A stretch of DNA of 64,000 nt. It comes from Lophium mytilinum. Its lineage: Eukaryota. Positions 9,751 through 30,753 of this stretch are shown here, piece by piece; the first letter of the stretch is position 1, and each line of letters begins with the position of its first letter. The notes below the pieces were generated by a model, which saw only the letters and a program-made list of their open reading frames with translations, was not told the DNA's origin and made no database searches. Made by a program: the position numbers and the translations under genes. Where the stretch lies: positions 248,001-312,000 of the forward strand of contig MU004190.1 in assembly GCA_010093605.1 (NCBI GenBank), in the 5' to 3' direction.

Positions 9751-11251
9751 ATGGAGTTCTGCATGGGAGAATATCCTGAAGGATCCGAGGATGAGTATCC
9801 GAAGACATGGGTGGAAGACCCCGCAGAAGAGACAAAAGAAGACACTGCGCAAGAACCAGCCAAACCTGAGGATCACCAGACGAAGAAGTCACATCGACAG
9901 GAGAAGCGAGCGTATGGATGGCAGTCGAAGAAGAGTTTCGAAAAACTCAGCCCGGAGACTAAAGCCCTGATCGACAGTAGAATCCGCAATGCACAAGCAC
10001 ATTGGGGTATCGAGTCTCTCGCAGAGGTGTTCCCCGAGCACACCCGGCCTCTAAAGCGCGTTCCCGGGAGCAACACTCGGCTAGTCCGACCGTGTTGTGT
10101 TGAGAATGATCCCAGACGCTGGTCATACAAGGTTCTCGAGTTGGTGGAAGAGCTCGCCGAATGCTCGAAGGCGGATCTCCCAACGGCGCTCGAGTGCCTC
10201 GAAGCAGAGGCGAAGGATCTGGAGGGCCACGAAAGTGGCAAATTCAAGAATTTAGAGCCTTCACTATTGCAAAACACGATCCACCACTATAAGCATACCA
10301 ACCCTAAGAATGCGGCTAATTGGACAGTCATCCGCGGCGAGGTAAGCCTGATAAAGTCGATCGAGACTCCTGACACTTCTTGTCGATGAAGCTATAGAAC
10401 ATTAACAAGGCCGTGTAGCGCAAGGACAAGGATGAATCCGGTCATGCCAGTGGGTCTACCGAATGGTTCCCCGCTCAAAAAGGAGGTCTAGAAGTCAAGA
10501 GAGAAGTTGATTCTGGTGAGCACGATGACGAAGATGAACGCGATGGTGGAATCGGCAACGGGTCCAGCACTGCAGGTACTGAGTCTATTGGGGGGGTGGC
10601 AAGAACCTCCAATTTCAATCCCCACGGCTCTGCAATCAACATCTCTGGCACTGCCATGACCTCAACGACGTCTAGCATTCATGACACCACGTCGAATACC
10701 GGATCCGCCGACGCAGAACACTACATTCCCGGCAGTCCGCCCGTTCCCAGCACGTTTCTCACTCCTGCGAAGTCCTGTTCTCGCAATCCAATCTCCTCCT
10801 CAACTCCCTTTGCGAACAACGGCCTACTGCGCCCAACATTCCCCGAGCAGCAATCTCCCTCCCCAGCCGCGGCCATCAAACAGGAAATCGAAGCCGAATC
10901 CAACCCCTACCCAGGAATCAAGATCAAGATCGAGGACGAAGGCAACCCTCGCAAACGATCCCGAGACGACGTCGAGTCAGATGAGTCCTCTGATGAAGAG
11001 CATGTGCTGCAGGCGAACCTTGATCTAAAGGAGAAAGAGGTAGAGGCTGCGCGTCTGAAAGCCCGAATTGTTAGCAAAAGGGCTAAGAAGGAGAAACAGA
11101 GGAGGCGCGAGTGAGTTGAGCCTCTTCCACTTTTACGGTATTGCAGATACTAACGCGGCGGGATTACAGGGAGCATGACATGGAGCAGCAGAGACGGAGA
11201 GAGCAGCTGATGAGGATGGGAAAGGAGGGTGATCCCATTGAGTTGGACTAG
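9751..11251 (+). CDS. Lineage-specific hypothetical protein, 3 exons
   Basis: ATG at 9751. Intron 10342-10418 joins the 9715 ORF to the frame of the 10596 ORF (RKDKDESGHASG...). A second intron at ~11110-11169 leads to a last exon ending ...GDPIELD-stop. Low-complexity centre and coiled-coil-like C-terminus. Confidence 0.65.
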
Positions 11252-11499
11252 GTGGGTTGGTGGAAGGTGAAAGGTCAGGGTCGAGAGTTATGGCGTCTGG
11301 AGCCGTTGATTGGGGATGGTTGCAATCTAGGAATCTGGGTAAGGAAAGGTGGGTGGGGTCTGGTTCTTCAGATTGGAATTACTTACGGTCGGCATGCTTT
11401 TGATGCGGACATCATTTTCTTTTGGATTCTTCTATTGGAATTACCAACTAATACTTTATTATTTCATTTTCTAGATATATTCTCTCCTTATGGTAGATA

Positions 11500-11810
11500 T
11501 TTGATTTGGAGTTGTTTGGGCGGTAGTTGATACCGTCTGAAGTGCTCTAGCAGTGTGAAATATTGAGACATAGGATGTCAAAAACTAGGGGTCTTAGATT
11601 GTATTGGGTAGATTTCGAGTCGTTTGGAGGCTAGTTGATACCGTGTGAAGTACCCTGGCGGCGCCAAAAACTGGGAGATAGGATGTTAAAGTTCGGGGAC
11701 TTAGATCGTGTTGTGTGAACTTGGGTGGGTCCAGCATACGTATGATACCTACTGTCTGAAGTCCCCTAGAGGCGCGAAAAAATGTAGGACAGGACGTCAA
11801 AAACCGCACG
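11500..11810 (+). repeat. Degenerate tandem array, about 3 units of ~108 bp (left array)
   Basis: TGATACCGT(C/G)TGAAGT...(T/C)AGGA(T/C)GT(C/T)AAA recurs, with cores at ~11533, ~11641 and ~11752. Confidence 0.85.
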
Positions 11811-13861
11811 CGATTTTATGTCTCTTCGAGTCGACTCTTCCTAGTTGCTTGTCTTTTCTCATATTTGAAGTTTTCTTTCTACCATGACTCGTCACAAATC
11901 CGTATACACTCATCTATCGCTGCCTGAAGCTCCTTGATACATTCTCAACGCTCCAGAGCTTGTTGATTGGGACAATTAGTAAGCTTTGCTATATACCTTA
12001 AGGACTAGCTTATGGAAGTATACACTCAGCTATGCTATTCGTCTTCCCAGATTCCAATAAGATGTCAGAGCACCACATGCAGTAGTAGAGCAGTGTACAT
12101 GGATCGATCACGAGACACTGTAATGTTCGTCCCTCATCGGTACTACTCTTTCCCTCAATTCCCAGTCTCCCTTGAAGAACGCTCAACACCTTTTCTAATG
12201 GCGCGCAGTGCCCTTCTCTAAGCCGAATTAAGCCCATTGGTCTTAACACTGGGAAGCATATAAGAAGTTGGTGGCTTAGACATACGCGTGATATGGTCGT
12301 CACGTCACTATGTCACCCGCGCCAGCCATCCCTCCATCCAGCTACTCCAATTCTCGCTCATCGTCAACATCACCATGCCTGTCCGATGTGGCATCGCTGT
12401 TCGTCTCCGCGCCTTTACCCAGCAGTGCTCATCAGAAGTACCAAGACATAGAGAGACCTGAAAACATGCAGCATCTACGATGCTACATCGAGTGCGCCAT
12501 GGGAAAAGCAAAGTCTCAGCCTCGACGACTATGGCGAGTACTATCTATCAACACCAGCATCAAACTTGTATAGAGTTGCGTGCGCGCGTATGCATCATCC
12601 GGATATAATGATCGGTGCAAATGAAGAAGACGTGGATCGAACCTACCAGACCTGCAACCAGTGCGCGGCCGAACGGCGGAGGCGAGCGATGCCGGTGAAA
12701 ACTGAGAAATGTTGCCCTTGGCCTGACCTCCCCCACAAACATTTCTCGCATGCAATTCCCCATTGATCGACTAAGCTAACCTGCCAAGAGATACATACCA
12801 GTGAAGATGCCATTCCAAATGGGAACTTCCAATCTCAACGATGACAATACCATCAAGCGTAACCAAGACTATTTTAAACGTTCTCTTTGAAGCTGTTAGG
12901 CTCCGAATGTTAAAGAATTTCTGTAGTAGTACGGATGGGACCCGCGAAGCGACAGAGTTCCGGAAACGAGGGAACCAAATGAAGGAGAAGGGAGTCTATT
13001 TCCCACGCAAGTAAGGCAGACCAAGTAATAGCTCTACATATATGAATGAGCGGAGGAGAAGAGAGTACTTGAGGGACCAAGATCTTATAGCGGACGATGT
13101 GCGCAGATGGAATGCTTGAGCTGTACCGAAGTTGTTCGGGGTCGTCCATATCAACACTACGTAGGGTAACGTCCTAGTATGCTGGTCAACAGCTTTCTAC
13201 CGACCCATTTTCAAAGGGCTTTGAAGCATCTCACACAGCGATGGAATAGTATGAACAGCTTTGGCGTTGTTCCGAGCTATATCTTTAACTTCTGCCTAGA
13301 CCTATACATCTTCGTCGACAGCCTGCTCGATACTCTTCGTCAGACATCTTCTCTTCTGATTTATGTCTTTTTCCACGCGACGGTTGTCACTTTCTTACCT
13401 CGCCGTGGCCTCTCCCACCTATCTCACATACATCCATACAAAACTTCCTATCGAGTTTTAAAATATCTTAACTCGGCTTCGTCACCAGACCATTCAGTCT
13501 TCTTCACATCTTGCATCTCCAACAGCTCACTCCCAATCGAACACCCTTCAAACTCCAGCATCTTCCACGCATCCTTCACTCCTCACCTCAACTACTTACT
13601 CCGCTTCTTGGACCTCACTTCCTGTAGCCTCTTCTTCCTACAACTTCATCTACTTGTACCTACCTCCGTCTACCACCTCTCTATCTGTATCACACTTTCG
13701 CCACTCTCTTCTCTCTTACAACGACCCTTCCAGTTCCTCGCCACAGGACCCTACCACTGCCCACTTCTCAATCACGTTTTCCCATCGTTCAACAATCCAC
13801 TCTGGACGAAGACAAATATTTCACGCCACATTTGAGGAGGAATTCAACCTCGCAGCCAGCC

Positions 13862-14545
13862 CTCCCGCCCGCCGGTCCTGCTACATCTACCGCCTCGCAA
13901 CGAGCCCGGAAACAGGCGCGCCAATTTCACGCCGAGGCCCCGTGGTATGCTCGGGTGGCCTAAAGTGCTGCCAATTCTGGGGAATTGGATGGTGCGGCGG
14001 AGAACCTGGCCAAGATCTTCAGTATCGTAGGGACTTCCATTCAGCCGCCTGACTACCGGCTGGTACGTAAATGCCAGGAGGACGACTTGAAAGAATCCCA
14101 GGTCATTTCCCTCTTAACTTCCGTGGACTGTGACGGGCAGGACATTGCACCGCACAATCGTAATTCTGTCGAAACCAACACACGTCCTAAACTTGTGAGA
14201 ATGCGGCTCGCCATCATCCGTGAGAAGCTCAACGGCAAACTCAAGGTGGTTCACATATTTACACATCGTGGACGAGGTGTTGGACAACTTTATCCCAACG
14301 ATCGAGCGAGGTTTGCAGGCTTGGAAGTTGAGGGATCGATGCAGCCCGCCGATCGTGAGGCCCCGGGGCAGCCTTTGATCATCCTACTCGATGGTCATGA
14401 CACGGTCGAACTGAAAGACAAGTCTAGTGCTGAGGTCGGGCAAATACATGACCACGAAATCATGTCAATTGAGACCATTCACGGATACCTTAGGCGGAAT
14501 AGCTGGGCAGAATTCAAGAGGAGAGTCAGAGAGTCGGGTAGATAG
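13862..14545 (+). pseudogene. Family A copy A1 (PemK/MazF-like, DUF6590-like domain), nonsense-disrupted
   Basis: Carries RLAIIREK...VVHIFTHRGRGVGQL...LKDKSSAEV...GYLRRNSWAEFKRR. An in-frame TAA at 13961 interrupts VA*SAANSGEL, which aligns with AEEAAASGTL of A4. No in-frame ATG upstream. Confidence 0.75.
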
Positions 14546-16373
14546 GCTAAGGAGCAAGCTCAGACGACCTAACAATGTAGCTTTATAGTAGCGCCCGCGT
14601 TTCCAATGGATGGATTAAGACGTTATTTTTCTATTTCTATAGACAGATGACGTTTTCCTAGGAATGTCTCCTAGCTTGACTTCCTTCCTAAAAATCTATT
14701 ACTTGTCTGGTGGAAACGCACGCTAGACAGGTTTTCAATGAGTCACACCGGACCTTCCCAGCAAGAGCTACTTCGAAGCTGCTAGCAGTTGCCTTGTTCA
14801 AATCTGCTACTTGTTTAGATGGTTTTTGAAGGCTTTCGCGGACGACACTTAGCTAGGCACAATGGTTTCCTCAAAACTTGTGTGCATGGAGCAATTTGTT
14901 CCAAGCAGCTACCAGAGCATGGACATGTGTCCATACTTCCTTTTCTACGATGTTTCCATGTGGCGACGCAGCTTTGCAAGTCGTTTTGACTCCTCCTCTC
15001 GAATCACTTTTTGTTTCTAATTAGATGTTTATTCCATCAATGTGAAAGGGCTACTCTGTCCATAATATCATTCTCCAAGCCTTGGGAGTCATTTTGAAGC
15101 ATCATGGTTAAGCACATCGGGCTTACTGATGCGCATTTCAAAGTGCGCAGCAATCCGGTGGCCGTATTTCATGGGCGTGGATTGGATCGATCGATTTGGT
15201 CAAAGATTAGAAATGATTGGACGAGTTGCGTTGAGTTTACTCGTATGCTTTGATCCATCAGTAGAGACCACAAGACAACCTAAAAAGGCTATAGTAAGGA
15301 GGAGATAAGATAGACTCTTGGGGTGACGCTACCCAAAATTCATGAATTCTCGTTTTCCAGTCCACTGGTGATGCAAAATCTACCAGGTTTTACATACTGA
15401 TTAGACTGAATGTGAAAGGGGGTAGTAGCGTCAAGCCAGGTGAGCTGCATCTAAATCTGCTCGCATTGCGTAGCTATTCGCGTACTGTCATACTAATCTT
15501 GATATATACTACGGTGCCCGCAAACTCGCTAAAATTCTGTACATGCATCGGTACGACCTGCTCTCAATTCTCATATCTAGTCATACGCCTCCTAAGGCTC
15601 GGTGTTCTCTAGCCTGTGGTGCATCTGTTGATATTGTATTTTTATTATGGCGCTAAACTCGACTTTCAGTTCAGAATCACGTAGGCGTCCATTCACGTAT
15701 GCGCCATGGATTTTACAAAACCATACCCAATATTCAAGAAGCTATCAAGTGGTCGCAGACTTGAGGACACTGCATTCCCCTCGACGAGTTGAAGCGGCGT
15801 TGAGCCGTATAAGTGAAGACAAAGGTTATCATTAACTCTTTCTAGCTATCGCGAGATGCTAATGAGTATTGGTTGTTGGCTTGTTCCAAGGAAATCAAGA
15901 TACTCTGGAGCTCGTGTGGCTTTAGCCTTTTTAGAATTATATCATAATCATACTTTTTAAGGGCTCGAGACATTTTCCGTCTAGAGTACAGAGTGTGACT
16001 AGTCCTAGTGCCAGGTTTGCCAAAATGCAAGCAAGAAACGAGACACTGCTTGCTGCCTTGCCAAATAAAAAGCAGAAGGTTTAAACTTAAGAAAAGAAGC
16101 AAGCTAGGAAGGCTGCCTTTACTAAGACATTGGTTACTCCACTGCCTGTTATACATCGTGATAACAGATCTCTGATCAAGCACGTCGAATATTTGCTCGT
16201 CACCAGCTGGAGCTCGGTGCTGGTACGCTATGCCTTCTAACCAGAAAAGCGGTGTATCGTGAGCGCTCCGAGGTGCAGTCCGCACAATGCGTGTGCGTAC
16301 AGCCACCATTAGTCACAGTGCCACGCATGCGATCCTGTAGCGGGTTGCGGTGGCGAACCCGGGTTCGCAGTGA

Positions 16374-17621
16374 CTAATCTCCATCTCTAGTCTCAACTGC
16401 TTGGAATGTGGAAACATATCCCATAGGAGAAGTCGGCGAAGACTTTGGAGGTTGCGCCGCGTTCTGTCCGAGACTGCGGCGGTATTCGTCTATCCTTCTG
16501 CGCCCCGGATCATCTGCTATCATGCTTACGCTGTCGAATGGCTTACTCGTATCAAACGAGAAGGTGTCGACCTCGGGTGGTGTCCCAGGACAGTCAGGCG
16601 GAAGGGGAAGGCAGTCATTGCTATCCAGCCACTTTTGTACGTTCGCTTGTTCATAGTCAAGAAGCCATGCCCCTTCTTCACCTCTAACGTAGCCATCGTC
16701 AGGGTGGTCCCCGAACTGCGAGTCTTGGTCCGGAGAAACCCATACTCCAAGCGCCTTTGCATCCTGTTTTGCCTGACGTAACGCTGCCTCGGCGGATATG
16801 ACCTCTCTGGTTATTCTCTGCCCTTCAACCACTTTGAGGCGGTCAAACTCTTCTTTCACCTCAAGGGCAGGGCGATTGCCCCGGGCGTTAACATAAGCTT
16901 TGCAGTCCCGGGTGTAATAGCGGTCTTTGTCGCTGAGCTTTTTTCGGGCCGACCAGTAGCGAAGCTGGTTTTCCTCCAGGTTTTTGCTCGCTTGCTTGTA
17001 GGTAAGTCCAGCCTTACTATATTTGACATCTGCTGATCCAGGACGAACCGGATGATAGCCCTCGGGAACGTATTTAGTCGAAGAAGTTTCATCCGACTGC
17101 GAAGGCAGTACCCCGTAGTTTACGAGAAGAGTTTCGAAAACCTTATTGGCATCAATTTGAAGGTCGTTCCATCGTTGGCGAGCTTCTTGGATGCAATTTG
17201 CAATCCCTTGACCCTCTACTTTCAATGTATGACACTCGTCTTCGTTCTTTGCAATTGTTTTTCGGAGGCTTTCCACTTCGCGGGCCTCCTCGTCTGAGAG
17301 CTGGTGCTGGCTCATGGCCAACCTCCTTTCTAATTCTTTTAGAAATCGTACTTTCTTCGCGCAAGAAACGTAGAGGTCGTGCTCTTGCGTTGCTATTTGC
17401 TGCAGCTTGGGCTCTAGCTGCCTGTCGGTGTCTTTCGAGACCCGCCATGCCGTCAAAGCTTTTTCGAAAGCCACTACCAGCTCCGTTGGCAGACCGTCCG
17501 GGATTCCTTGAATTGTTTGGGCCATCTGCACAGCACTCCACGCACGCTCTGGAGTACCCCCCTTCTCCTCATTGTCCATTTTCAGTGTATTGCAGTGTTC
17601 AGGTTGCTTATCCAGGCCCAT
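16374..17621 (-). CDS. Family B copy B1: coiled-coil protein with DQDSQFGDHPDDGY motif
   Basis: Long open frame; first ATG at 17621 (MGLDKQPEHC). Clear paralog of 20379-21608, sharing GYxPVRP, DQDSQFGDHPDDGY, CPGTPPE(V/I)D and RRRIDxY. Confidence 0.8.
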   Translation of the reverse strand: MGLDKQPEHCNTLKMDNEEKGGTPERAWSAVQMAQTIQGIPDGLPTELVVAFEKALTAWRVSKDTDRQLEPKLQQIATQEHDLYVSCAKKVRFLKELERRLAMSQHQLSDEEAREVESLRKTIAKNEDECHTLKVEGQGIANCIQEARQRWNDLQIDANKVFETLLVNYGVLPSQSDETSSTKYVPEGYHPVRPGSADVKYSKAGLTYKQASKNLEENQLRYWSARKKLSDKDRYYTRDCKAYVNARGNRPALEVKEEFDRLKVVEGQRITREVISAEAALRQAKQDAKALGVWVSPDQDSQFGDHPDDGYVRGEEGAWLLDYEQANVQKWLDSNDCLPLPPDCPGTPPEVDTFSFDTSKPFDSVSMIADDPGRRRIDEYRRSLGQNAAQPPKSSPTSPMGYVSTFQAVETRDGD

Positions 17622-18521
17622 CCGAATCCTCGGCAGTGATGGCACGATATCTGCGAACGCGCTTCGGGCTATCAGCCAAACGTCAGACTGCAGTACAGGA
17701 GTATTTGGGAACTTACTCTTCAAGACCAATTCGCAGACTGGTATAAGCACAAACGATAGCCAAAGAACAGCAAAATAGTTAAAGAGACTAACTTTGCTCA
17801 ACCACGTTTAAAGAATTCCAACTAACTATTGGGGTGGGATAAATTGCGGTGGTGTGTGGGTGTGGTGAGCAAAAGGCAGCTTCCAGGGGCCGAAGCTGGC
17901 CATAACCTGTAGGGCGCTTATATAGTGTGGCGAGGTGGATTTTTACAGCCACATTCACCACTTGAGACGGCGTCACACGATGAAATCTTGCCTCAGAGAT
18001 ACCAGCGCTGCCCAAGATGACCATAGACCTTTCCCAGATCCTTTGAACATGCTCAAAGCATTCACAGTCACTAGTTCGACCCCTTTCACTGCCCAAATCT
18101 GCAAGTGTCACCCTCTAAAATGGCTTTTCTAGCCCTTTCGCTCTCTTGCATAACGGCACACACATGGTACATACACCAACCACGACACCGGAGCCTCGAT
18201 CGAGCATAAATTGCGAATCCCACCCATTCTGTAGGCCCTGCTATACACCAACACAATTCTATTATTATATGAATGCGATCTCGCACCGAAATGAATCGGG
18301 AAAGCGAGAGGAAACCAGAGAAGATAGAGGCATCGGATTCTAAGAAAGCATGCGAGGAGTATTGGAGTTCCTCTAAGACTTTGTCTAGCTATACTACCCT
18401 ACCTGAAGAGACTCCTTTATAATTGTTTCTTTTGGTAAGCGCGGTATTTAGTCCGATATAAGTCTATACCTACTAAATTAGTTTATAGGTGCAAAGCCCT
18501 TTTAGCCTATACTAAAGCCTG

Positions 18522-19388
18522 ATGTTGGTAGATAATACGCGAACAAATACCACGGAGTTGTCTTCTAAAGCCCTAAGATAATAAAGAGCCTCTACGGTTC
18601 TCTCAGCTAGTATATGGAGAACGGAGTCTGCCCTAACTAATTTGCTAACTCCTAATACGACTGCACTAATAGCCCCCCATTAAGCCGGTTTATACTCTTA
18701 AGCCCCCGTAGGACTAACGGCTAGTGGGAACTAGATCCGGCCGCTACTAGTGGTAAGAAAAAAGCCACCGTTCTATTGCATACTAGTTTTGTGGGAGGTT
18801 TAGAGGGTACGGGACGTTACTGCAGCCGGCGATTAGAACGGGGACGTGAAAAATATGGCCTTTATATTTAAGGCCGACATGAAAACTACCCGGCCGGGCA
18901 TTAAGCGGGGGTGTTAAGAGGAAGACTTAGTCCCGGGGTTGTTTATTAGTGTCTTGCTTGCAGTAGACTGCAGCAAGTAGATAATCAAGCCGAACATTCC
19001 TAACCTGGTGCAAGGCAATAATTGGATGGGCTATGTTAAGGTACGCTTCGGCATAGTCCGATAGCAGAACGGACTGGGTAGATTGACCGTAACTCCTTGT
19101 TACACGCACTCCGGTTGAGGGATTGGCCGTTTATCGGCAGAGCGTCAAGCGGAGTATGTTAAGCTCTAGGTCCAGACTGATGAGAAAGAGGACGGGCGAG
19201 AGGACTGCCATTTTGTTGAACTTTAAAATAAGAAATTTGATATGAAGGAGCAGTTACATGTGCGAGTTGTGGAGAAAATTGACTACGAGATAATGCTTAT
19301 CGAGCGCATTGAAAGTAATCTCGCCCCAGAAAGCTGGGAGATTTACAAGGCTCTAGTCGATACATCGCCTGACATCCTGGCCGAGTGA
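18522..19388 (+). pseudogene. Family A copy A5, RIP-destroyed (absent from ORF track)
   Basis: A single frame reads GC*EEDLVPGLFISVLLAVDCSK*IIKPN...KVRFGIVR*QNGLGRLTVTPCYTHSG*GIGRL...NLAPESWEIYKAL. Stops at 18915, 18978 and 19116 sit where A1 has Q, Q and R. Start at 18522 is tentative. Confidence 0.85.
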
Positions 19389-20378
19389 GCTCACTTTAGT
19401 CAACATGTTGAAGGAGCTATGCATCTGCACCATGTGTAGTAAGATGCTATAACAGCTACATACGATCATGCCTAAGAAGACATCAGATCTGCAGGCAGCT
19501 TTCGACATTCTGCTTGCTCTTCTCGACGTGTTTCACAGCCACAACGTAGGAAATGCTTTGTGACATTGTACACTATTCAATTATTCGAGAGGAATGTTCG
19601 TTGATGACGGCATTTGTTAAAGTTTCAGGAATTGTCGTTGAGTAATTGGCGTGTTAGATGGATCGTCAGAGTGGATCCATATCACTAAAAACTCAACTTA
19701 AACTGGCATCAGCTGTTTTGTGGTGCGTGCAAAATATGATTGCTTCAAGTGTAGTAGTTTCTGTGACATGCAAACATATCAATCAATCTTTTGATTAGAT
19801 TAGAAATCTCTTCATTGGTGAGCAGATCGCGTGACCACTGTTGGTAAATAACGAACAAACTGAAGCAAACATGGGCAAGCTCTTGGATTTTTTGTCAGGC
19901 GGTCGGCACTGGTATTGCAGAAACTCGTATTAAGTCAGCCTTGCTCGCACTCCAAAACCATCCACTTGCCATCAAATCACATGCAATTACATACAGCGGT
20001 AATATCTTGTTTTCTAAAAAATTGCAAATAGCCATATAGTTTATGATCCCAGGTCGACAATCGTGCCATCTGCATACCTTCAGTGTCTTTCACAGCTTAC
20101 ATCAGAATTATGTATCTGGGCGACTATGGCTAGAATTGCTAACGAGCGAGCAAGAACTAGATGCTTTCTTCTTGATCAGAATAAATAGAGTGCCAAATTC
20201 GAGAAAACGAACAAAAAAGGAAGGCTCTGTCCACACGCTGTCTGCCACTACCCGTCACGCCTTGGATACAGCGGCCTCTCAGCAGGCCCGCCTGGTTTGT
20301 AGGTTTCGCCAGCTCGGGCGTGGTGCTTACGTGCTACGTCGTCGAAAAGGTCGGCGAAGAATCTAAATTCCGCGGCCC

Positions 20379-21608
20379 CTATCGCCTAACAAGTTCGTTG
20401 TACCTATCGATTCTCCTTCGATCTGCACCCTCAGCCACCGCACTCACACTATCGATAGGCTTGTTAGTGTCGAAAAAGAACTCATCGATTTCCGGCGGAG
20501 TACCAGGGCATTCGTGCGACAGTGGGCCCTCTTCCATTTTCATCCATTTCTCGATCTTTGAACGATCAAATTCCGAGACCCATGCTCTCTCGTGATTCTC
20601 TGAATAGCCGTCATCAGGGTGATCCCCAAATTGCGAGTCTTGATCGGCAGGTACCCAAACTCCAACAACCTTAGCGTCCTTCTTAGCAGTTTGCAACTCG
20701 GCCTCTGCTTCCCTAATCTCCCCAGCCAGCTTCGTCCCGTTGACGAGATAAGAGAAATCGAATTCCTTCTTGAGTTCCTCGACACAACGACTCCTGGGAG
20801 CTTGGACGCAGTGCCTAAGGTCCTGCTCATAGAACTCCCTATGGTCTTGGAGCTTTTTCTCCGCAAACCAAAGCTTCCGCCGTTTCTCATTCAGATTCTG
20901 AGTCGCTTCCATCAGAGTAACTCTGGTAGCCTGAGATTCTGCGGATGTTATCTGTGATGCCTGGGGGCGAACAGGCCTGTAGCCATCTTGAGTGTCTGCT
21001 ATAGCTAGTCCTTCAGGAGTTCGTGCCGCTAAGAACCCAGGGCTGAGTAAGACGTCTCCAAGCGCTGCGTTGACTTCAACCTGGGCTTTTTCCCAGGCAG
21101 TTCGGGCTTGCTGAATGAGATGTTCCAGGCGCGCAATCTCTGTTTTGAGAGCAGCCCGGTCTTTTCTGTTTTGGATGGCGATTGCTTCGAGGTTCTTCCT
21201 CTCGCGACTGTCTTCTGCGGAGACCTCAGCTTCTCTACCGCCGGTTGACTCTTCAAATTCATCCAGTCTTCGTTCGCTCCGCAGGATAACGACGTACAGC
21301 TTTTGCTCTTCCCAGAAAGCCTTTTGTCGCCTGGGTTCTAAACGCGCCTCAATCGCCTCGAAATCCCGCCACAACTGCAGGGTGCTCAGAACTTTCGAGT
21401 GCAGATCTGCGGGCAGATTCAAAACTACTGAGCTCGGCACCGGTGAAACTGCTTCAGCTGGGCCTTTAGAGCAGTGTTGGCTTGCTTCGGCAGGCAGATC
21501 AGGATCTTCGGCCGCTGGATCACATTTCTCTGGCTGTTGCGAAGCTTTGGTCCTAGAAAGGTTTATGATGGAGGTACCGCTGTCGTCCACGGAATCTTCC
21601 AGTGCTAT
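20379..21608 (-). CDS. Family B copy B2 (may be non-functional: no ATG in first 226 codons)
   Basis: Open frame paralogous to B1, preceded by intron 21674-21609 (GTGAGT..CTAAC..TAG). First in-frame ATG is only at 20912. Confidence 0.65.
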   Translation of the reverse strand: MALEDSVDDSGTSIINLSRTKASQQPEKCDPAAEDPDLPAEASQHCSKGPAEAVSPVPSSVVLNLPADLHSKVLSTLQLWRDFEAIEARLEPRRQKAFWEEQKLYVVILRSERRLDEFEESTGGREAEVSAEDSRERKNLEAIAIQNRKDRAALKTEIARLEHLIQQARTAWEKAQVEVNAALGDVLLSPGFLAARTPEGLAIADTQDGYRPVRPQASQITSAESQATRVTLMEATQNLNEKRRKLWFAEKKLQDHREFYEQDLRHCVQAPRSRCVEELKKEFDFSYLVNGTKLAGEIREAEAELQTAKKDAKVVGVWVPADQDSQFGDHPDDGYSENHERAWVSEFDRSKIEKWMKMEEGPLSHECPGTPPEIDEFFFDTNKPIDSVSAVAEGADRRRIDRYNELVRR

Positions 21609-21859
21609 CTAGCAATGGTGGGCTTCATTGCGTTAGTCAAACTGCAACCAACACATGAGTTTCAGATTACTCACCTAAAGAAGACGGTCACACAGCTAGA
21701 GAAGGGTATAGTTAACACCCTTTAATTAGTAGCGCTTAACGCTAACTTGGTTTGAAAGACCTGGCTTTGTAGTAGGAAAAATTGGTGGTGTGTTGACAGT
21801 TGGAGATGTGGTGTGTGTGTGAGCAAACGGTAGGAGGTGGAAGCAATTTGTTCACGTGG

Positions 21860-22130
21860 TCATGTCTGACTTAAATACTCAACTGGGAAACCTGGAGAGT
21901 GAATTTGCGACGCAGACGTCGCCTACGATGTGTGAGGAGGGCTTCCCTGTCTAGTGAGGTAGCGTTCACTGCATTGGAGCGGCGGACAGGCCCCTGAATG
22001 ACCGATACACCATTCACTGCTACGTAACCCTACCCCCTCCGTATACATCAATGTAAGCGCACATAGACCAAAGACTTTACCAACGATATACCACCACCTC
22101 CACCACCCACACGCTTGTCTATCAGTATCT
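21860..22130 (+). promoter_or_regulatory. Conserved upstream block of family A / B-A bidirectional region
   Basis: GTGAATTT...CTACGAT...TCACTG.ATTGGAGCGGCGG...GATACAC.ATTCACT...TGTAAGC.CA.ATAG...GATATACCAC...CCACCCAC is shared with 24035-24300 and partly with 26750-26950. Confidence 0.6.
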
Positions 22131-22439
22131 ACGAATTCTCAAAACTTTTATCCCCCTCGAAGTCTGGTTCTTCATCGACGTAGCAACAACTCCCCTCTAT
22201 CCTTGGAAAGTTCTTCATCGACTTCTCGAAATCACCCACCCCAAGTTCCGGAACTGGAAGACTTCTATGACACCATCCCTCTAAGAATCCGAGAGTCAAC
22301 CAGTTCGTCCAGCAAGCTTGAGTCCTCAAACACGCTACCGTCTGCTAAGCTACACACGGTAACGAAACCAACTCGTACGACATCGTCTTCATCGCCTTCT
22401 AATGATCACGACGAGAGGATTGTTCCCCGATTTCTGACC

Positions 22440-23483
22440 ATGAACCCGCCAAAGTCCCGGTTGCGACTGACGAACGCAAAGATCACCAATCCTGTCACCA
22501 GTATCCAGACGCCGTCGTCACTAAGCTACTCTGCAGCTGTAACTAGGTCGCTGACATCCACAGCCGACGCGGAGAGCTTGACAGGACCTCAACGCACGCA
22601 GGACAACGATAGGAGCTTTCCCACGGTCAGTGAAGCCCACTTGGTTCCAAGAAACTCGGATCACGGAAGCCATGGGGTTTCCGAGAGCTTGCCATCTCCC
22701 TTATCACCTCCTATAACGATGCCTGCGAACGTCCAGAGCATGTTAAACCAATCCTTGTCTGCTCGATCACGGCCCGGGAAAGCAGCTCGGATCAAGGCGC
22801 GAACCAGGGAGCTCCAGAAGCTCTCTTCGTGGACACACAAGGCAACTTCTTCACAACAACCCTCTCTTCATCCGTCGTCATATGATCAGGCAACCCCCAA
22901 GTTCATTCGATGCATTGAAGATGCAGCTGTGGAGGCAGCGGTTTCTGGAATACTGCTTTCCACAGACCCAAGCGCATGGGACTTGAGTGAAATTGAGACC
23001 CACGGTTCCAGAATTGAGGATTTCGACGTAGGAATGGTCATAAACTTTATCATGATGACCATCTGCGCGAACGGAGGCCTGATGGCTGGAGATCCTGGTG
23101 TAATATTGACTCAGCAAGGCCTTAAGCTTTTCAAGCATCGGTTTGGGTTGATAGTGCAAAAGCAGGGGAACACAATGGACGTTGTTCCCATGTATACGCA
23201 TAGAGGACAGGGGATTAGCCATTTGGAGCCCTCCACATGGAGCAGATATGCATCTCTAGGGGTGAAAGGGAAAGCAATTGATGCAGACCGGTACGCCCCA
23301 GGGCCTCGGTTGCTCTTCGACGATGACTTGTCCTTCAAGCTGAAGGACAACTCGTATGCAAGAGTTTCGCAACTATATACGATCGACTTCGGCAGGAAGA
23401 CGCCCCTTCTTTGCAACGAAGAGATAATGGGCCGTCTTACGGATGAGTCTTTCGCGGAATTGAAGCGTCGTTGCGGAGTATGA
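22440..23483 (+). CDS. Family A copy A2 (PemK/MazF-like, DUF6590-like C-terminal domain), 347 aa
   Basis: ATG 22440 (MNPPKSRLRLTNAKIT); KHRFGLIVQK...VVPMYTHRGQGISHL...DNSYARVSQLYTIDF...GRLTDESFAELKRR. Intronless. Confidence 0.85.
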   Translation: MNPPKSRLRLTNAKITNPVTSIQTPSSLSYSAAVTRSLTSTADAESLTGPQRTQDNDRSFPTVSEAHLVPRNSDHGSHGVSESLPSPLSPPITMPANVQSMLNQSLSARSRPGKAARIKARTRELQKLSSWTHKATSSQQPSLHPSSYDQATPKFIRCIEDAAVEAAVSGILLSTDPSAWDLSEIETHGSRIEDFDVGMVINFIMMTICANGGLMAGDPGVILTQQGLKLFKHRFGLIVQKQGNTMDVVPMYTHRGQGISHLEPSTWSRYASLGVKGKAIDADRYAPGPRLLFDDDLSFKLKDNSYARVSQLYTIDFGRKTPLLCNEEIMGRLTDESFAELKRRCGV

Positions 23484-24607
23484 ACTGCAGTTTGAACAGG
23501 TCGTGAGTAGACCACCGGGATCCATCGACTAAGGATCCTAATTACCTGACTATAGGCTGTGTGATATTGTTGGAGACTGAACGGGCTTATACTCAACGAC
23601 GTTAGAGTAATGATATTATTGGCTAGTTTGTAAGCTTCATATGTCTTTTGGCACATATCTGTATCAGGGTCAGATTTTTTGGCTACTAGATCTATTCCCA
23701 AGGCGTCAACGAACATATTTTTCTCCCCTGTGTACCTTGTCTCGTCCCTCCACGTCGCTCATCTCATGTGCTCTTATAAGACTATTTAAACCAGCTTTGC
23801 GATGTGTCTCGAGTATCATCATGATGCTTTTCGCCTCTTTTTCAACGGGGAGGCGGATAAGTCTCACTCTGCAAAGTAGACTGACAGTAAGATAATCGAA
23901 CTCGAATTGTTTTGCTGGAAGTTCAGACTAGTGGAGTTCTATTTGCCTCGAGGGGCCAAACGGCAAACTGTGGCCATTGATAGAGAAGTAATTGGACAAC
24001 CCCTGCTCGTGGTGTCACCACTCGCTTTTTCGTAAAATACCTGGGAGAGACTCCGAGGAGTGAATTTAGAACGTACGCTCCGGCTACGATCTGCGACCGG
24101 GGAACTTTCATTCACTAATTGAAATAATCACTGAATTGGAGCGGCGGGCGCTAGGTGTCGAGATATGCGATACACAATTCACTTCGCTGCTATGCAGCGC
24201 TAAACTTCCTAAAAAGCATTGTAAGCACATATAGCGTCCCCTCTACCTGTGTCTTTATGAATGATATACCACTACGTCTACCACCCACCCCCTTCGTCTA
24301 CCAAGCGCTCCGCACTTTCACTACTTCCTCGAGAATCCACTTCGAAATCTCATCCTTCAACGATTAATTAAGAGCACCTACCCTCTTTCCACCCACTAGT
24401 TCCCCAAGGACCACCACCCCCAATCCACCACTTCGAGGTTCCATTCCAACACCCGCATCGAGTTATTATTCCTCAACGACTCAGAACCACCGTCTACACC
24501 CTATCATTTTGTAGAAGACGGTCTCTTAAACCCCACCTCCTCGAGTTCCTGTATCCCGCTGGTTTCTCTCACCCCCTGAAGCTGTCAGGGACTGCTTTTA
24601 CGACAAC

Positions 24608-25651
24608 ATGCCGATGCGACTGGTGAACAGTAAGATCACCAAGACTGCTCCCAGTAGTAACCAAGCTTCATCCTTTCGAAGCTACTCCGCAGCTCTAGCC
24701 GAGCCGATCACTTCTGTGCAAGACGAAGACTTAGAGTTCCCCGCAGTTGAGGAAGCTGATGGTGCAGTACAAAGCTCCGAATGCAATAGCGCAAAGCTTT
24801 CTGAGAACACGAAACCACCAGAAATAAACCCTACGCAGATGCCGCTTGCTGTGCAGAGAATCTTTTGGCACTCTTCCAACATACCGCGAAAGTATGGCAG
24901 CGCAACTCGCAGTGCTAATCGAAATAAAGAGCTCAAACAGCTCACCACGTGGATGGACGAACCAAGCTCTTCGGCTACGGCCCTAGGCCTTCCAAGTTCG
25001 TCGCGACAGGTAGCGCAACCACAGACTTCCGGCCTTCAGTCCAATTTCACCTCGCCAACCCCTGAGCTCATTCGCCGAATTCAGAGAGCAGCTGAGGCGG
25101 CCGTGGGTTCTGGCACATTGCTTTCAACCCTGGCGAGCGCTTGGGACCTCACCGAGTTCCACGCGAATGCCCCTAAGATTGAAACTTTCAAGGCTTCAAT
25201 GGTTATAAATTTCACTATGAAAGTCCTGTGCGATGATCCGAGGGCCAAGGTTGGAGATCGGGGTATCGTCCCTACGGAACAAGGGGTCATGCTCTTTAAA
25301 CAACGCTTTGGAATCATACTCACGATGCATGAGAACGGCTTTACGGTTGTACCCCTATACACCCACAGGGGCTCCGGAATCAGCCATTTGCATCGATCTG
25401 AGTGGCACAAGTATGCAGCAATAGGGCTAAAGGGGAGAGATCCACCTTTTGATACATACGCGCCAGGACCCCGCTTACTTCTCGACGAAAATGCGTCATT
25501 CGATATTAAGGGAAGCTCGTACGCTAGACTTAATCAGCGCCACACTATTGACTTTGATCAGAAGACCCCGCTCGATGGGTATGAAGCCGTTGTGGGATGC
25601 CTCAGCAAGGAGTCGTTCGAGGAGTTGAAGCGGCGCTGTGCAGAGGTGTAG
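24608..25651 (+). CDS. Family A copy A3, 347 aa
   Basis: MPMRLVNSKIT...SYSAAL; KQRFGIIL...VVPLYTHRGSGISHL...SSYARLNQRHTIDF...GCLSKESFEELKRR. Confidence 0.85.
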   Translation: MPMRLVNSKITKTAPSSNQASSFRSYSAALAEPITSVQDEDLEFPAVEEADGAVQSSECNSAKLSENTKPPEINPTQMPLAVQRIFWHSSNIPRKYGSATRSANRNKELKQLTTWMDEPSSSATALGLPSSSRQVAQPQTSGLQSNFTSPTPELIRRIQRAAEAAVGSGTLLSTLASAWDLTEFHANAPKIETFKASMVINFTMKVLCDDPRAKVGDRGIVPTEQGVMLFKQRFGIILTMHENGFTVVPLYTHRGSGISHLHRSEWHKYAAIGLKGRDPPFDTYAPGPRLLLDENASFDIKGSSYARLNQRHTIDFDQKTPLDGYEAVVGCLSKESFEELKRRCAEV

Positions 25652-27138
25652 AGGTGAGTAGATATCAAGATCTTCTAAGGCCGGAAGAAGGCCTGTTGGT
25701 GGCGATCCTGTATGAGTACTTTTCAGGGCGGCTGTTGAGACATCGTTGTTGTTTAAGTATCTGAGGCATCTCCAACGGCGGGTACAGTGTCAGTTACAGC
25801 TTGCTTCAAAGGCATTCGCCCACGATTTTGGCTAGAGACGAGAGGGGTTCTAACTTTGGAAACGTAAACTTTTGAATATAAGGTTCACGTTCTGGAAGAC
25901 TCGTTAAGATAGCGTTTAACTTAAGATAATCCTGCCTCTTCTACGTTAATCGTGATGATCTTTCATCATTCCAGAGCTTACAAACAATCCACGAATTCTC
26001 TTTGATGTCCATCCGCTCCCACCATCGCTTATATCCTTGTCTCTGCTGCAGAAACATAATCTTTACTCACCTTTGAATTCGTGTGATATCAAAACCTATC
26101 CCTTGAGAAATGGCGTTGATAAGAAAGTGCTAGGACAGATTCTAGGCACTCATTCTCCGCTTGCTCCAGTCAAGCGATCTAAAATGGAGCTTTGGACACA
26201 TCATATCTTCTGCTAGTACATCAAACCAGGTGCAATCTGATTTCCTCAGAGAGTCGATATTTGAAGATAAGTAACGGCAAACCAGCTTGATTGCTTATTA
26301 GGTTGTGCCTATTTGAATATTGGGAACACTCTCGCGTTGCCTAGATCGCATCAATAGACCGTAATCAAGCCATAATACGTCCTCGTCGGCGAACATACCA
26401 TTGTCAATCTTTGTTCGTGATATTGAGTACTATGGCCCTAGACCGGAGGCCTTTTCCTACTAGCTAGATAGCTTTGTGAGCAACTACATAAGAATATAGG
26501 CCGTGCGAGAGTGGTTAAAGGTTTGCTTACCTTTCAGCAAGTATAAACGTATGCCTATCCTATACTGTGGAACCTTTCACGTATTACTAGACCACAAAGA
26601 GCTCTATATGAAGGCAGCTTTGTTGAATGAATCGACGATCTTTGTTTCAGACTGTACTCAAATTGTGCAGATAGGCTATACATATAGCTGTATGTGAAGC
26701 TATTCGCGAAGTCTTTCTATTATGCTACTACCTGCCGCGTCTAAGTGTTTGGGAGGGGGTTGAATTTGTCGAAAGCTCATCTTATAGAGGTATCAGGTCT
26801 TCTTCCATTAAACTTGGCCCGCGCTCGCTCACACATTCACTCGAGAGCAAGTTCCGAGGAGTCAGCTCGGCCGTTCTAGCTACTTTCACTAATGACACTC
26901 TAAAGGAGCGGTCTGCGAGCCCTAGAATGCGCGGGATACAATTCACAATACAGTTTTTATTTGATCAAGCCATCATTTACAAGTAGGGCAATCTTTTCTC
27001 ATTCACTACTGCAATTGGTCCACCATCAACACCACGCCCACCACCACCGGCACCACCCATATCGATTTCTTCAGGGTTTCGAACACCCACAACCCCTTCC
27101 TTTCTCGCACAGACGGATCTCTCAGAAGCCGGGCTGCA

Positions 27139-28407
27139 ATGCAGCCAGCTTCCTCTAGGACAAAATCTGTGCAAGATAGCAACAAGATAAAAAGTCAGGA
27201 GGTTTCCACTGATCATTCCTACGCAGCGAGTACAGTAACGAGTTCAACAAAGAGCTGCCATCCAGTCATATCACAGGACTATAGTCCAAGTGTCACGAAA
27301 CCACGGCTGCGCCTTTTGAACACAAAACTCACAAAACCCGAGAAAGTCAAACGAAGCACCACACCGACAAGCTACTCCGCTGCAGTCTCCGGATCTCGGG
27401 TAATCCCTAACTACCCGAATAGCTTGCCTGCCACAAATGCAGTACAAGAGGAAACGTCTACTGCCATTGCAGACTCTCCAACGACGCCGCTCCAAGTATC
27501 CGGCTCAAGCTATGGGTTTCGCACCAGCTTAAGCTCGAATCAGGCAGCAGAAGTGGACCCTCTTGAGACTGCGCCAGCGGTTCAAACTCCGCTTAGCTAT
27601 GCCTCTGTAACACGGCCCCAGCTTGGGGATGCCGGCCAAAGTCTTGAGCTTAAATTAAGCATTCAACGCGGAAAGGCCCTGACAAAGCTCAAGACCTGGA
27701 CAAAGACGAGCGACTCAACCACGAACACTGGCATACCAGGCCCACAGCAGAATTTGATACCCCGCTCGAGGTTCAAAAACCGGCCAATTCCAGACAACAT
27801 TCGGCGATTCCAAAAGGCCGCTGAGGAGGCTGCAGCATCAGGAACGCTGCTCTCATGTTTTGGAGTAGCCGGAACCTCTGCCCAGGATGGCCCCAACATT
27901 GGGGAGTTCGAGCCACGCATGGTGATTAGCTTTACCATGAAGGTACCTTGCACGGATCCAAGGCTCAAACTTGGGGATCCCGGGGTCATCCTCACGAAGG
28001 AGGGTCTCATGCTGATTAAGCAACGTTTCGGGCATGTCGTACAGAAGTCCGCAAACAGCTTAAAGGTAATACCATGGTACACCCATGGGGGTGAGGGGAT
28101 CGCACATCTCTCATATTTGGCGCGTAGAGACTATGCGGGGACGGGTGTGCAGGGAATCATACCTAAGTCACTTAACTTTGCACCAGGGGATCGGCTGTGG
28201 GTGGAAGAAGGGCCGTTGTTCAATCTAGGAGAGCGCTCTTACGCCAGGGTGTCCGAGTATCATATTATTAACTTCGGCACCTTGACTCCCTTTGATAGAG
28301 TTGTCCCGGCGGGCTATTTGACCCCACAGTCTTTCGAAGAGTCGATTCGGCGCCATGAAGAGGCACTGGCCCGCAAACAGGCTCGTCTACAATCCGAGGT
28401 TGAGTAG
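27139..28407 (+). CDS. Family A copy A4, 422 aa
   Basis: RLRLLNTKLT...SYSAAV; KQRFGHVVQK...VIPWYTHGGEGIAHL...RSYARVSEYHIINF...GYLTPQSFEESIRR. Confidence 0.85.
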   Translation: MQPASSRTKSVQDSNKIKSQEVSTDHSYAASTVTSSTKSCHPVISQDYSPSVTKPRLRLLNTKLTKPEKVKRSTTPTSYSAAVSGSRVIPNYPNSLPATNAVQEETSTAIADSPTTPLQVSGSSYGFRTSLSSNQAAEVDPLETAPAVQTPLSYASVTRPQLGDAGQSLELKLSIQRGKALTKLKTWTKTSDSTTNTGIPGPQQNLIPRSRFKNRPIPDNIRRFQKAAEEAAASGTLLSCFGVAGTSAQDGPNIGEFEPRMVISFTMKVPCTDPRLKLGDPGVILTKEGLMLIKQRFGHVVQKSANSLKVIPWYTHGGEGIAHLSYLARRDYAGTGVQGIIPKSLNFAPGDRLWVEEGPLFNLGERSYARVSEYHIINFGTLTPFDRVVPAGYLTPQSFEESIRRHEEALARKQARLQSEVE

Positions 28408-28689
28408 GCTTGGTACATAAGTAGGGCATTACGCTTTAGTATACGCACTGTTGGACTTTACATTGCAAAAGTAAACTCTTAAGCATGCCAGAGGACTTCT
28501 AACGGCGGCGATAAGGTGAAAGTCTGCGAGTTCAATTTAGATGCTTTGGGCTTTGAAGCCATGCTGGGTACTATGTAGAATATCGAAGTGCTTCTAATGG
28601 TGTTGAGTAGTACGATATACGACTTAGAAGATAGCTTTTAATATACGGGCGCAAGAACTCAGCATTGATTTCAATTTATCATGGATACT

Positions 28690-29800
28690 TAGGGGTTGCC
28701 CTACGGTATTATCAGGTTCGCATTTTCTCCCATTTCCTATCAATCAATTCGCGGCATGCGAATTGTCCTATGTCTCTTATCTTTTCATGATGCGTTAGGG
28801 CTCGTCAAACAGCGTTTTCAACCTCTCAAATAGCCCCAAATTCCGCCGGTGCAATTGGGGCCCTTTGAATATCCACATCCTCGTTACACATTTCTTGCGA
28901 CTCTGGAGCCTGTCAAACGGCGGTATTATCTCGGTAAATACTACTTACCTTACGTGCGATTCAGGCCCTATCAATAATCACATCCCTTCAAAATTTTCGT
29001 GCTACGCCAAGGCACCCCCGACGGCGTCGTCAACCTGTCAAACCCTTCCAGTTTCTCACCACACGACTTAAGGCATGCAAACCTTCACATGCTCTTTTCA
29101 TTTCTCTCGCGACTCTGGGCCACACCCAACGGTGCCATTGTCCTGTTAAAGGCCCCCAAATGCCCACAGCGCAATTTCAATCCTACCAACGTTAACATTG
29201 CAACAACTATTTTTCGGGGAGGTAAAGGACCTTAGACGCCGGTGACTGGGCGTCACAAAGGAGTGAAAGGCGGCGACTTCATCTACGGTGTTGAGGTTGG
29301 AACAAGCTATCCCATCGACTAAGACTGCAGTGGGGTACCTCTTGCGGTGGTATGTAGGTGTCAAAAAGGTGTGATACGCTACGATCCAATTCGCAGTTAT
29401 GAGCTTCGGACATCGTACCCGTTACTTCAAGATGGTGACGGAGGACGCCTGACGAAGACAAAGAGGTGTCAAACAGCTGTGAAGGGAGGTGGTACGATTC
29501 AAGGAGCTGGGAATATAGCATTGTACCTGGAGGTTTCAGACCATGCTCGGACACTCCTGACGGTGATAAGTAGGTGCCAAAAGGTTGAAGAAAGGTGCGT
29601 TCCAATTTGGGACTATCAGAGTTTGACTTCGCGTCCGGAATCTTGCGAACGAGGCCGAGGTATCCTGCCAGCGGTGAGCAGCGGTCAAACAGGTGTGGAA
29701 AGTAGTAACCCCATCTACGCCCTCACATCTTTGACATCGTAGTCCGGATCTAGAAAGCATAGCGGCGGACCTCTTACAGCGGTAAGTATGTGCTAAATAA
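28690..29800 (-). repeat. Degenerate tandem array, about 11 units of ~108 bp (right array), inverted relative to the 11.5-kb array
   Basis: Core (A/G)CGG-like motif at ~28704, 28810, 28918, 29032, 29130, 29240, 29345, 29453, 29561, 29672 and 29780. AGGTG(T/C)CAAA recurs at ~29356, 29464 and 29572. Position 28766 TCCTATGTCTCTTATCTTTTCA matches the reverse complement of 11554-11575 (TCCTATGTCTCAATATTTCA). Confidence 0.75.
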
Positions 29801-30021
29801 TTGCGGAAAACCGCAACCCAACATACGACCTCACGACTTCGACTTCATCTTCAGAAACTCAAGACCAGAGCGGAGTACCTCAAGCAACCACAAGCAGCTA
29901 ACAAGGCCCACAGTAACCCTCTTCAATACCCCGCTCAAGGCGAGAATATCAATGAGGGTGGTCAGTCCCGGGCCGAAGCCCTCGCCACCAGGACCAGCCT
30001 GGCGACTAGCCCCCGTGGGCT

Positions 30022-30753
30022 CTACGAGTCCAACCCCAGGAACTCAACCGACGACGTCTCCGACGCGTCATCATCCTCCTCCTCCTCCCCGCTCTCAATC
30101 GGAGCAGTGGCCGACCACGCCAAAACCGGCGCGAATCTAAAGGCGGCGTCTGGGCACTTCCCGATCCGCGAGCCGAAAACTTTCCTCAGATCTATGCCCT
30201 TCGAATTGGAGCGGCGGCGCGGGCTTGCTGAACGGGCTCTGGGCGAGGTCGGGACACTTCCGAGAGGAGACGGAGATGCTGGTGGTGGTGCTGGTTCTGG
30301 CGCTGATTCGAAGGCTGGTGCAGCAGACATGGATGGTGGGGTGGTGTCGAACTGGTCGAAGGTCTCCAGACAGTGGTAGGTTGGCGGCAGGGCGGGCGCG
30401 GTGACGGGCTGAATCTGGTAGTGCTGGGGATGAACGCACTCGCGGCCGGCTGAATCGAACCAGCAGTGACCGGGTCCGTTGCACCATAGGCTTAGAGGCT
30501 TGGGGGCGGCCATCCAGGCGAGTAGAGACTCCAGGAGAGAGGGCGGACGCGGACGCGGGTTCCGGTGGAGGTCTGGGAGTGGACACTCCCCGCCCGCTGA
30601 TTCGAACCAGCAGGCTCCAGGACCGTAGCAAACGAGGGTTGGTGGTCGCGGCGCTGGCGTGGGTGGCACGAAGCCGAAGATGTCTCTGAGGAATTCTGCG
30701 TGCTCGCAGGGCTTCTCGAGGGCGCAGTTGATCGCGGTGGTCATGTCCAGCAT
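30022..30753 (-). CDS. Hypothetical Pro-rich protein with duplicated Cys motif
   Basis: GC-rich 243-aa ORF from ATG 30753 with two copies of LxCxGPGxCWFxSAGxEC. Confidence 0.6.
   Translation of the reverse strand: MLDMTTAINCALEKPCEHAEFLRDIFGFVPPTPAPRPPTLVCYGPGACWFESAGGECPLPDLHRNPRPRPPSLLESLLAWMAAPKPLSLWCNGPGHCWFDSAGRECVHPQHYQIQPVTAPALPPTYHCLETFDQFDTTPPSMSAAPAFESAPEPAPPPASPSPLGSVPTSPRARSASPRRRSNSKGIDLRKVFGSRIGKCPDAAFRFAPVLAWSATAPIESGEEEEDDDASETSSVEFLGLDS

Follow-up and report, generated by a model that had tools for sequence, protein, structure and literature searches.

Two arrays of tandem repeats stand at the borders of a gene cluster in the fungus Lophium mytilinum, and the locus raises the question of whether they are the ends of a mobile element. 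The cluster lies in a stretch of 64,000 nucleotides (nt) of GenBank assembly GCA_010093605.1 (contig MU004190.1, positions 248,001 to 312,000; hereafter the window, numbered from its first letter) and comprises genes of two orphan families, here called A and B. A sequence-only reading had taken the arrays, whose units measure about 108 nt, for subterminal repeats of a large cargo-carrying element. We find this proposal partly supported: the geometry of the arrays holds, while the status of an element does not. The reading we prefer, to which we give roughly an even chance of being right, is that both arrays belong to a non-coding 108-bp minisatellite family dispersed through the genome, and that these two old members are located in the border spacers of an ancient lineage-specific cluster. 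Coordinates of all features are collected in Table 1.

Both arrays stand out by their periodicity. At lag 108, the autocorrelation is 0.416 in 11480–11830 (mean 0.26, standard deviation 0.031) and 0.447 in 28700–29850 (mean 0.252, standard deviation 0.02), and in the right array the harmonics at lags 216 (0.36) and 324 (0.307) can be followed as well. A sliding scan at lag 108 over the whole window returned seven stretches above 0.36, among which the two arrays rank first and second (0.552 and 0.395), the remaining five peaking at merely 0.364–0.37. The numbers of units obtained, 3 on the left and 11 on the right, agree with those estimated in the sequence-only reading, and the three sequence strings it had quoted are present where it placed them. 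Identities among units range from 29 to 57% in the right array and from 51 to 67% in the left one, and with such divergence neither array is picked up by Tandem Repeats Finder at score 30. Along the right array, adjacent units are the most similar (37–56% in gapless register, with one small register shift), and the units form a continuous divergence gradient from the C-rich units R0–R3 through the transitional unit R4 to the G-rich units R5–R10. A relic unit just past the stop codon of gene B3 suggests that this array may once have extended that far. In the left array, the first unit is 78% identical to its neighbour over 80 nt and 67% identical over the whole unit.

Profile searches connect the two arrays in both directions. 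Searched against the window with nhmmer, a profile of units R0–R3 recovered each of the three left units in minus orientation (E = 0.0039, 0.0075 and 0.061), and these are its top three matches outside its own array; a profile of the left units matched R0–R3 back, again on the minus strand (E = 0.018, 0.069 and 0.22). Since the three left units are not independent of each other, column-permutation controls that keep the tandem structure were used (n = 500). The summed nhmmer score was 34.3 bits compared to a null maximum of 3.9, and the reciprocal search reached 28.0 compared to a null maximum of 5.9. Among 500 dinucleotide shuffles, none attained the observed best single score. A plain Smith-Waterman alignment of the raw arrays was not significant (z = 1.6; 25 of 300 shuffles attained the score), and the kinship therefore rests on the profiles together with the identical period. 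One may ask whether two unrelated minisatellites happen to share a period and resemble each other by chance, given this non-significant alignment, unit-to-unit identities between the arrays of only 35–53%, and single nhmmer E-values that are modest (0.004–0.2). We consider this hardly credible. The two kinds of controls, none of which attained the scores in either direction (0 of 500), largely refute it; the period of 108 nt is identical; and a combined profile of the 14 units recovers all of them at E = 7.7e-16 to 2e-08 versus 0.15 for the best unrelated match in the window, a difference that arises partly by construction. When the 14 units are aligned together, the left ones as their reverse complements, the motifs TTTGACATC, GG.AC.TC.GACGG and GTCAAA stand in register and are common to all of them. 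Judged by these searches and their controls, the two arrays are one family of common ancestry in opposite orientation, as had been claimed from the sequence alone. Weak profile matches at 9.05–9.4 kb were inspected and dropped.

The consensus sequences offer a view on how the arrays are related. That of the left units is 56% and 48% identical to those of the two halves of the right array, whereas the halves are 43% identical to each other. The left units are hence nearer to each right half than the halves are to one another, which fits a shared family ancestor and not a mirror copy, and a mirrored unit-by-unit correspondence between left and right was not seen. The two right-array halves were also considered as mutual inverted copies, with no significant result. 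These observations bear on the possibility that a single local inverted duplication, or an inversion with a breakpoint inside one array, produced the arrangement with no mobile element involved. An inversion splitting one array yields exactly two arrays on opposite strands, the two share family and period within 17 kb, and gene orientation inside the block is mixed, with B genes on the plus and A genes on the minus strand. Such an event is nevertheless quite unlikely in our view, as the left units are not nearest to the adjoining inner right units and keep no mirrored order, near copies on other contigs exist for the left array and none at 80% likeness for the right one (see below), and the left and right flanking genes, gL and gR, are not paralogs. 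The last point also rules out an inverted segmental duplication that includes genes.

From their sequence, the 108-nt arrays are non-coding and strongly diverged. Stop codons occur in every frame of the left array and of R0–R3, a single plus-strand frame is open across about 3.7 outer right units only, and conservation within the arrays shows no codon phase (p = 0.889, 0.8605 and 0.9605). A repeat of the type reported for the Candida ALS adhesin genes, where 108-bp tandem repeats in frame correspond to 36 codons (PMC7856822, PMC10867151), is ruled out by these stops and the missing codon phase; the likeness to ALS is a 108-bp unit in a fungus, in length only, and the repeats there are coding. 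A structured-RNA or tRNA-derived unit was likewise discarded, as the arrays gave no Rfam match at E ≤ 5 and no tRNA, and the consensus fold of the units contained 0 consensus base pairs. Ratios of transitions to transversions of 0.95–1.14 and a GC content of about 0.49 rule out repeat-induced point mutation as the cause of the divergence.

The placement of the arrays can be described with respect to the flanking genes. On the left, a contig from a run presumed to be RNA matches 10417–11110 and 11170–11542 with 0 mismatches. As it skips a 59-nt intron with GT..AG borders (11111–11169), it represents spliced RNA of the plus-strand gene gL, whose spliced reading frame ends in a stop at 11249. Upstream of 10417, the same contig continues into sequence unlike the window, implying a further intron. 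Its other end, at 11542, falls within the first left unit, and because a repeat can itself end a contig in an assembly graph, this position is not a mapped RNA 3′ end. The run matches only 10417–11542 and a short repeat at 13.5–13.8 kb, leaving the rest of the block uncovered, and it is uninformative on expression elsewhere in the block. Among sequencing runs, those of the source sample are the only ones that contain the stretch, and for 20400–30399 no RNA run is listed. On the right, the stop codon of gR lies about 90 nt from the last right-array unit. With spacings of about 90–245 nt from the stop codons of flanking genes directed at the cluster, both arrays thus lie just past the 3′ ends of genes that converge on it, and the orientation of the units is the same as read by gL and by gR.

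This symmetry would suit arrays that work as cis-elements, be it as 3′-end or termination zones, as insulators or as arrays of protein-binding sites, of the flanking genes or the cluster border. Both lie immediately downstream of converging genes and are read in the same unit orientation, the gL contig ends inside a unit, TTTGACATC, GG.AC.TC.GACGG and GTCAAA persist in many units, and the period is retained despite about 50% divergence. We rate such a function as distinctly improbable, however. When units are grouped as left, inner right and outer right, the positions conserved in one group do not correlate with those in another (Spearman rho 0.005–0.087, not significant), and the common motifs therefore look like residual ancestry, with no sign of maintained sites. 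A consensus structure is absent, the contig end may stem from the repeat itself, and another convergent spacer in the window is occupied by an unrelated 96-bp array, so such spacers may simply tolerate arrays.

We then aligned the sequencing contigs of the source sample to 10400–30399 at a likeness of at least 80%. Four other contigs of the source assembly overlap at position 11544, at a depth of 720 versus 116, and pieces from contigs of 17.9, 31.9, 2.3, 0.45 and 22.0 kb match 11513–11696 with 1–13 differing letters per 63–116 nt. At two joints on other contigs, the step back (103 and 68 letters) and the extra letters (5 and 40, respectively) sum to 108 nt; therefore, these other loci also look like 108-nt arrays. 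All joints there are direct (the path goes back or skips), and none switches strand. For the right array, no other contig matched at 80% likeness, as expected from the strong divergence of its own units, and dispersed occurrence holds for left-type units only. The left array thus looks younger than the right one, since its units are more alike and copies of at least 80% likeness exist on other contigs, with none for the right array. The sequence-only reading had stated that a repeat scattered genome-wide without association to the A and B genes would refute its proposal; of this, the scatter is what we observe, with at least four other contigs carrying left-type units. A short dispersed repeat of its own is located at 13543–13770, inside the B4 gene model, where it matches another genome contig and a contig of the presumed RNA run (11 differing letters in 95; a segment of 87 letters in the window corresponds to 108 at the other locus). 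Its 26-nt piece at 13724–13749 is 88% identical to 29042–29067, in right unit R2, in direct orientation.

Between the arrays, the cluster (12.5–28.4 kb) contains four B genes, one B fragment and two A genes. A tblastn search of the whole window found copies only at 13976–28404, which confirms that all A and B copies lie between the arrays. Identities of 36–46% among the B paralogs and of 36% between the A paralogs, together with the 56% identity of B1 to a protein of another genus, suggest that the cluster is old. In that genus, represented by Mytilinidion resinicola, the homolog of gR and the B homolog matched by B1 have consecutive GenBank and RefSeq accession numbers and a contig of equal length, from which, given how annotated scaffolds are usually numbered, the two appear to be neighbours. 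If this adjacency holds, the border between B and gR predates the split of the genera, and M. resinicola offers no empty site on that side. The idea of comparing this interval in relatives for an empty site is weakened accordingly. Scans of metagenome contigs for relatives of family A or a related locus yielded no confirmed locus, and a word-index homolog search with A1 and B2 returned only the proteins of the window. A 382-residue protein of the same species, P0008, apparently encoded on the same 1.95-Mb contig (a contig of the same length) outside the window, is matched by the B-family profile; it contains no Pfam family, and its accession number exceeds that of B4 by 117.

Direct traces of a mobile element were sought at the borders and in the encoded proteins. 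The longest inverted exact match outside the arrays measures 8 nt, which 172 of 200 shuffles equal, and no direct match of at least 6 nt connects 11380–11510 with 29900–30040, although age could have erased a target-site duplication; a further comparison yielded nothing convincing. The open reading frames of 12–30 kb contain no Pfam family at E ≤ 0.01 and thus no transposase or recombinase domain, and the six A and B proteins gave only weak coiled-coil noise at E ≤ 10; a tyrosine-recombinase captain of the Starship type (DUF3435) was found in neither set. CACTA- or Plavaka-type termini, a target duplication of 2–3 bp and a transposase were likewise not found in the block or its outer flanks. 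The sequence-only reading had likewise seen no transposase, recombinase or target-site duplication, and the Pfam scan of the block and the comparison of the outer flanks agree with it. Its proposal of subterminal repeats of a cargo-carrying element was not upheld, with no tips, target duplication or transposase and with arrays that differ in apparent age.

Known elements can be compared on this basis. Starship elements of the Pezizomycotina carry cargo and are equipped with a tyrosine-recombinase captain; the likeness here is a cargo-carrying block in a filamentous ascomycete, whereas our block measures 18 kb, encodes no captain or other Pfam domain and has no flanking direct repeat. Classical FB elements are foldback transposons with internally repetitive inverted ends. 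Such ends are also reported for the foldback-type transposon Galileo (PMC3573991, PMC4168063) and for the foldback-type element Tetris of Drosophila, whose inverted ends consist of tandem repeats that also form free arrays (PMC4079207). The locus resembles these elements in having two inverted ends built from tandem repeats (about 100–200 bp), unequal copy numbers and free arrays elsewhere. It differs from them in that searches for terminal tips, a target duplication, other copies of the element and a cognate transposase found none and that the arrays are only about 45–50% alike, with 17 kb of ordinary-looking genes between them. In Ising's Transposing Element, also from Drosophila, large chromosomal segments are reported to move between two foldback elements (PMC6431247). 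A large gene-bearing segment bracketed by foldback-type repeats is common to both; the mobility of Ising's element is documented there, whereas our locus shows no sign of movement and one of its borders seems syntenic in another genus.

On a transposon reading, the arrays would be remnants of the long, internally repetitive inverted ends of an ancient non-autonomous DNA element resembling foldback elements, Galileo or Tetris (or of the subterminal region of a CACTA-like element). It would have entered the spacer of the convergent genes gL and gR, with the A and B genes as its cargo from the outset or picked up later, and would since have lost its tips. Inverted tandem arrays of one family in unequal copy number (3 versus 11) are what such an element would present, every A and B copy of the window lies inside them, and the non-array spacer of only about 245 plus 90 nt at the flanking stops is such as an insertion into a short 3′–3′ spacer leaves. 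The occurrence of the family at other loci recalls the free arrays formed by the end repeats of Tetris (PMC4079207). We still judge this origin unlikely, because inverted tips and a target duplication are lacking, Pfam domains, those of transposases and recombinases included, are missing from the block, one end looks older than the other, and the joints on other contigs are all direct, none changing strand. Moreover, the gR homolog of another genus seems to have a B gene next to it, and any insertion would therefore predate the split and be untraceable.

Minisatellites and dispersed tandem-repeat families of eukaryotes consist of non-coding head-to-tail units that are found at several loci, where they lie between genes and lose their sequence without moving. 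The arrays resemble them in each of these respects, with head-to-tail units of fixed period, no coding capacity and, for the left type, members at several loci; they differ in that the 108-nt period persists over about 50% divergence with a single small register shift, and in that two members stand at the two borders of one cluster. Under the minisatellite reading, slippage during replication or unequal exchange would have enlarged the arrays, which would afterwards have decayed where they stand, with substitutions far exceeding insertions and deletions, so that the period would be preserved. The family may have spread between loci via a transposon-borne copy or by ectopic recombination. Two seedings would be as likely to give inverted as direct arrays, and one local inverted duplication would also give the inverted arrangement. 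No sign was seen that this arrangement serves to move or rearrange the cluster.

Several observations sit uneasily with this minisatellite origin. The two arrays are 17 kb apart and lie exactly at both borders, which is more order than independent seeding predicts, and the block they border is the only lineage-specific one between the housekeeping genes. Compared with the adjoining unit of its own array, the copies on other contigs are no more distant from the first left unit, and such near copies point to a mobile or converting source, which a minisatellite origin leaves unnamed. In addition, a search in 1.8 kb selected post hoc gave weak unit-like relics 105–131 nt past the stop codons of B2 (E = 0.047) and B4 (E = 0.035), which hint at a link between the units and the B genes.

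Table 1 Positions of the arrays, cluster genes and flanking genes in the window
Feature	Positions	Strand	Evidence	Remarks
gL, left flanking gene	10417..11542	+	contig of presumed RNA run and reading frame	last two exons (10417–11110, 11170 onward)
Left array	11479..11821	− relative to right array	autocorrelation, unit stacking, profiles	3 units × 108 nt (third unit +4 nt)
B4	12473..14545	+	tblastn	most divergent B copy; multi-exon model P0005; C-terminal domain 13985–14545
A1	16374..17621	−	tblastn	coiled-coil N-terminal part and conserved acidic C-terminal block; convergent with B4
B5	18921..19367	+	tblastn	degenerate B fragment; convergent with A2
A2	20322..21590	−	tblastn	36% identical to A1
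B1	22440..23483	+	tblastn	56% identical to Mytilinidion resinicola protein; C-terminal domain 22932–23483
B2	24608..25651	+	tblastn	modelled C-terminal domain 25100–25651
B3	27139..28407	+	tblastn	C-terminal domain 27760–28407
Relic unit	28457..28518	+	profile, E = 2.9e-5	50 nt past B3 stop codon
Right array	28744..29931	+	autocorrelation, unit stacking, profiles	11 units × 108 nt, divergence gradient
gR, right flanking gene	30022..30753	−	annotation; homolog in Mytilinidion resinicola	243 aa, on record as predicted protein

In the wider window, the housekeeping genes left of the A/B region include those for a carboxyltransferase and COX15, and those on the right Thg1, a Ras GTPase, Med13 and NOL10. 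The unrelated array in the second convergent spacer (2509–3095; 96-nt period, 2.3 units by Tandem Repeats Finder) lies between the carboxyltransferase reading frame (1201–2181, plus strand) and a reading frame of 865 residues (3712–6306, minus strand), and the 108-nt profiles give no match there. A weak periodicity of 123 and 93 nt (0.40–0.42) at 59194–59912, within the NOL10-like gene, probably reflects low-complexity coding sequence, and a perfect 18-nt tandem duplication (2.1 copies) is present at 34694–34730.

The proteins of the cluster raise a question of their own. When 1.84 billion representatives were searched with a profile built from the four B proteins, 26 of them matched at E ≤ 0.001. 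When matches of this profile were scanned with Pfam, 9 of 14 were assigned to DUF6590 (PF20233) at E ≤ 0.01, with 6 of 14 reaching the 27-bit cut-off; the four B proteins themselves match 0 Pfam families at E ≤ 10, PemK/MazF included. On this profile evidence, the B family appears to be a distant relative of fungal DUF6590. For the C-terminal domain of B2, an AlphaFold2 model based on a 19-sequence alignment reached a predicted local distance difference test score (pLDDT) of 87.1 and a predicted template modelling (TM) score of 0.82. Toxin endoribonucleases, namely MazF, Kid and their relatives, account for every one of the Foldseek matches listed (E = 3e-3 to 3.5e-2, target TM 0.51–0.69). An independent structure alignment against 48,161 chains placed MazF/Kid-type structures in all of the top 10 positions (Z = 8.2–10.9; root-mean-square deviation 2.1–2.9 Å over 86–102 residues), followed by CcdB (Z = 7.8) and then by the type III toxins CptIN, ToxN and AbiQ (Z = 5.0–7.1). 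The model thus confidently predicts a toxin fold of the MazF/Kid/PemK type for the B C-terminal domain. This predicted fold, which B would share with the MazF, Kid and PemK toxins and with CcdB, does not establish a toxin or ribonuclease function. Unlike MazF, Kid and PemK, the B domain is eukaryotic, comprises about 180 residues with insertions and with K..R and THxGxG as conserved positions, follows a long Ser/Thr-rich region, and it lacks a sequence-level match to PemK or any solved chain (0 at E ≤ 10 in a profile search against solved chains). The literature searched contained no paper mentioning DUF6590 and none pairing "MazF-like" with Ascomycota.

In the A proteins, a coiled-coil N-terminal part is combined with a C-terminal block of about 100 residues that is conserved (DQDSQFGDHPDDGY ... 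CPGTPPE) and acidic, its net charge being −10 or −11. Two convergent pairs are formed, B4 with A1 and the B5 fragment with A2, and from this gene arrangement a relationship of A and B as partners is possible. An A-like region was not found in 27 B-family proteins, which hence provide no evidence of fusion. Taken together, the 18-kb block could be imagined as an ancient selfish island, in which a foldback-type transposon, its internally repetitive inverted ends surviving as the two arrays, would have delivered a eukaryotic poison-antidote system (MazF-fold B and acidic-tailed A in convergent pairs) between two convergent genes. We regard this as very unlikely; if it were true, the 108-bp family elsewhere in the genome would mark further such elements.

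In conclusion, there is little out of the ordinary in the arrays apart from their tidiness: on the preferred reading, the period of a dispersed fungal minisatellite outlives its sequence at the borders of a lineage-specific cluster. If the family proved to be tied genome-wide to cluster borders or to inverted pairs, it would help to explain the assembly or movement of orphan clusters in the Dothideomycetes. The more valuable lead is the B family, apparently a distant relative of DUF6590 and with a predicted MazF fold, which is clustered with a second orphan family and would make a eukaryotic MazF-like system directly testable.

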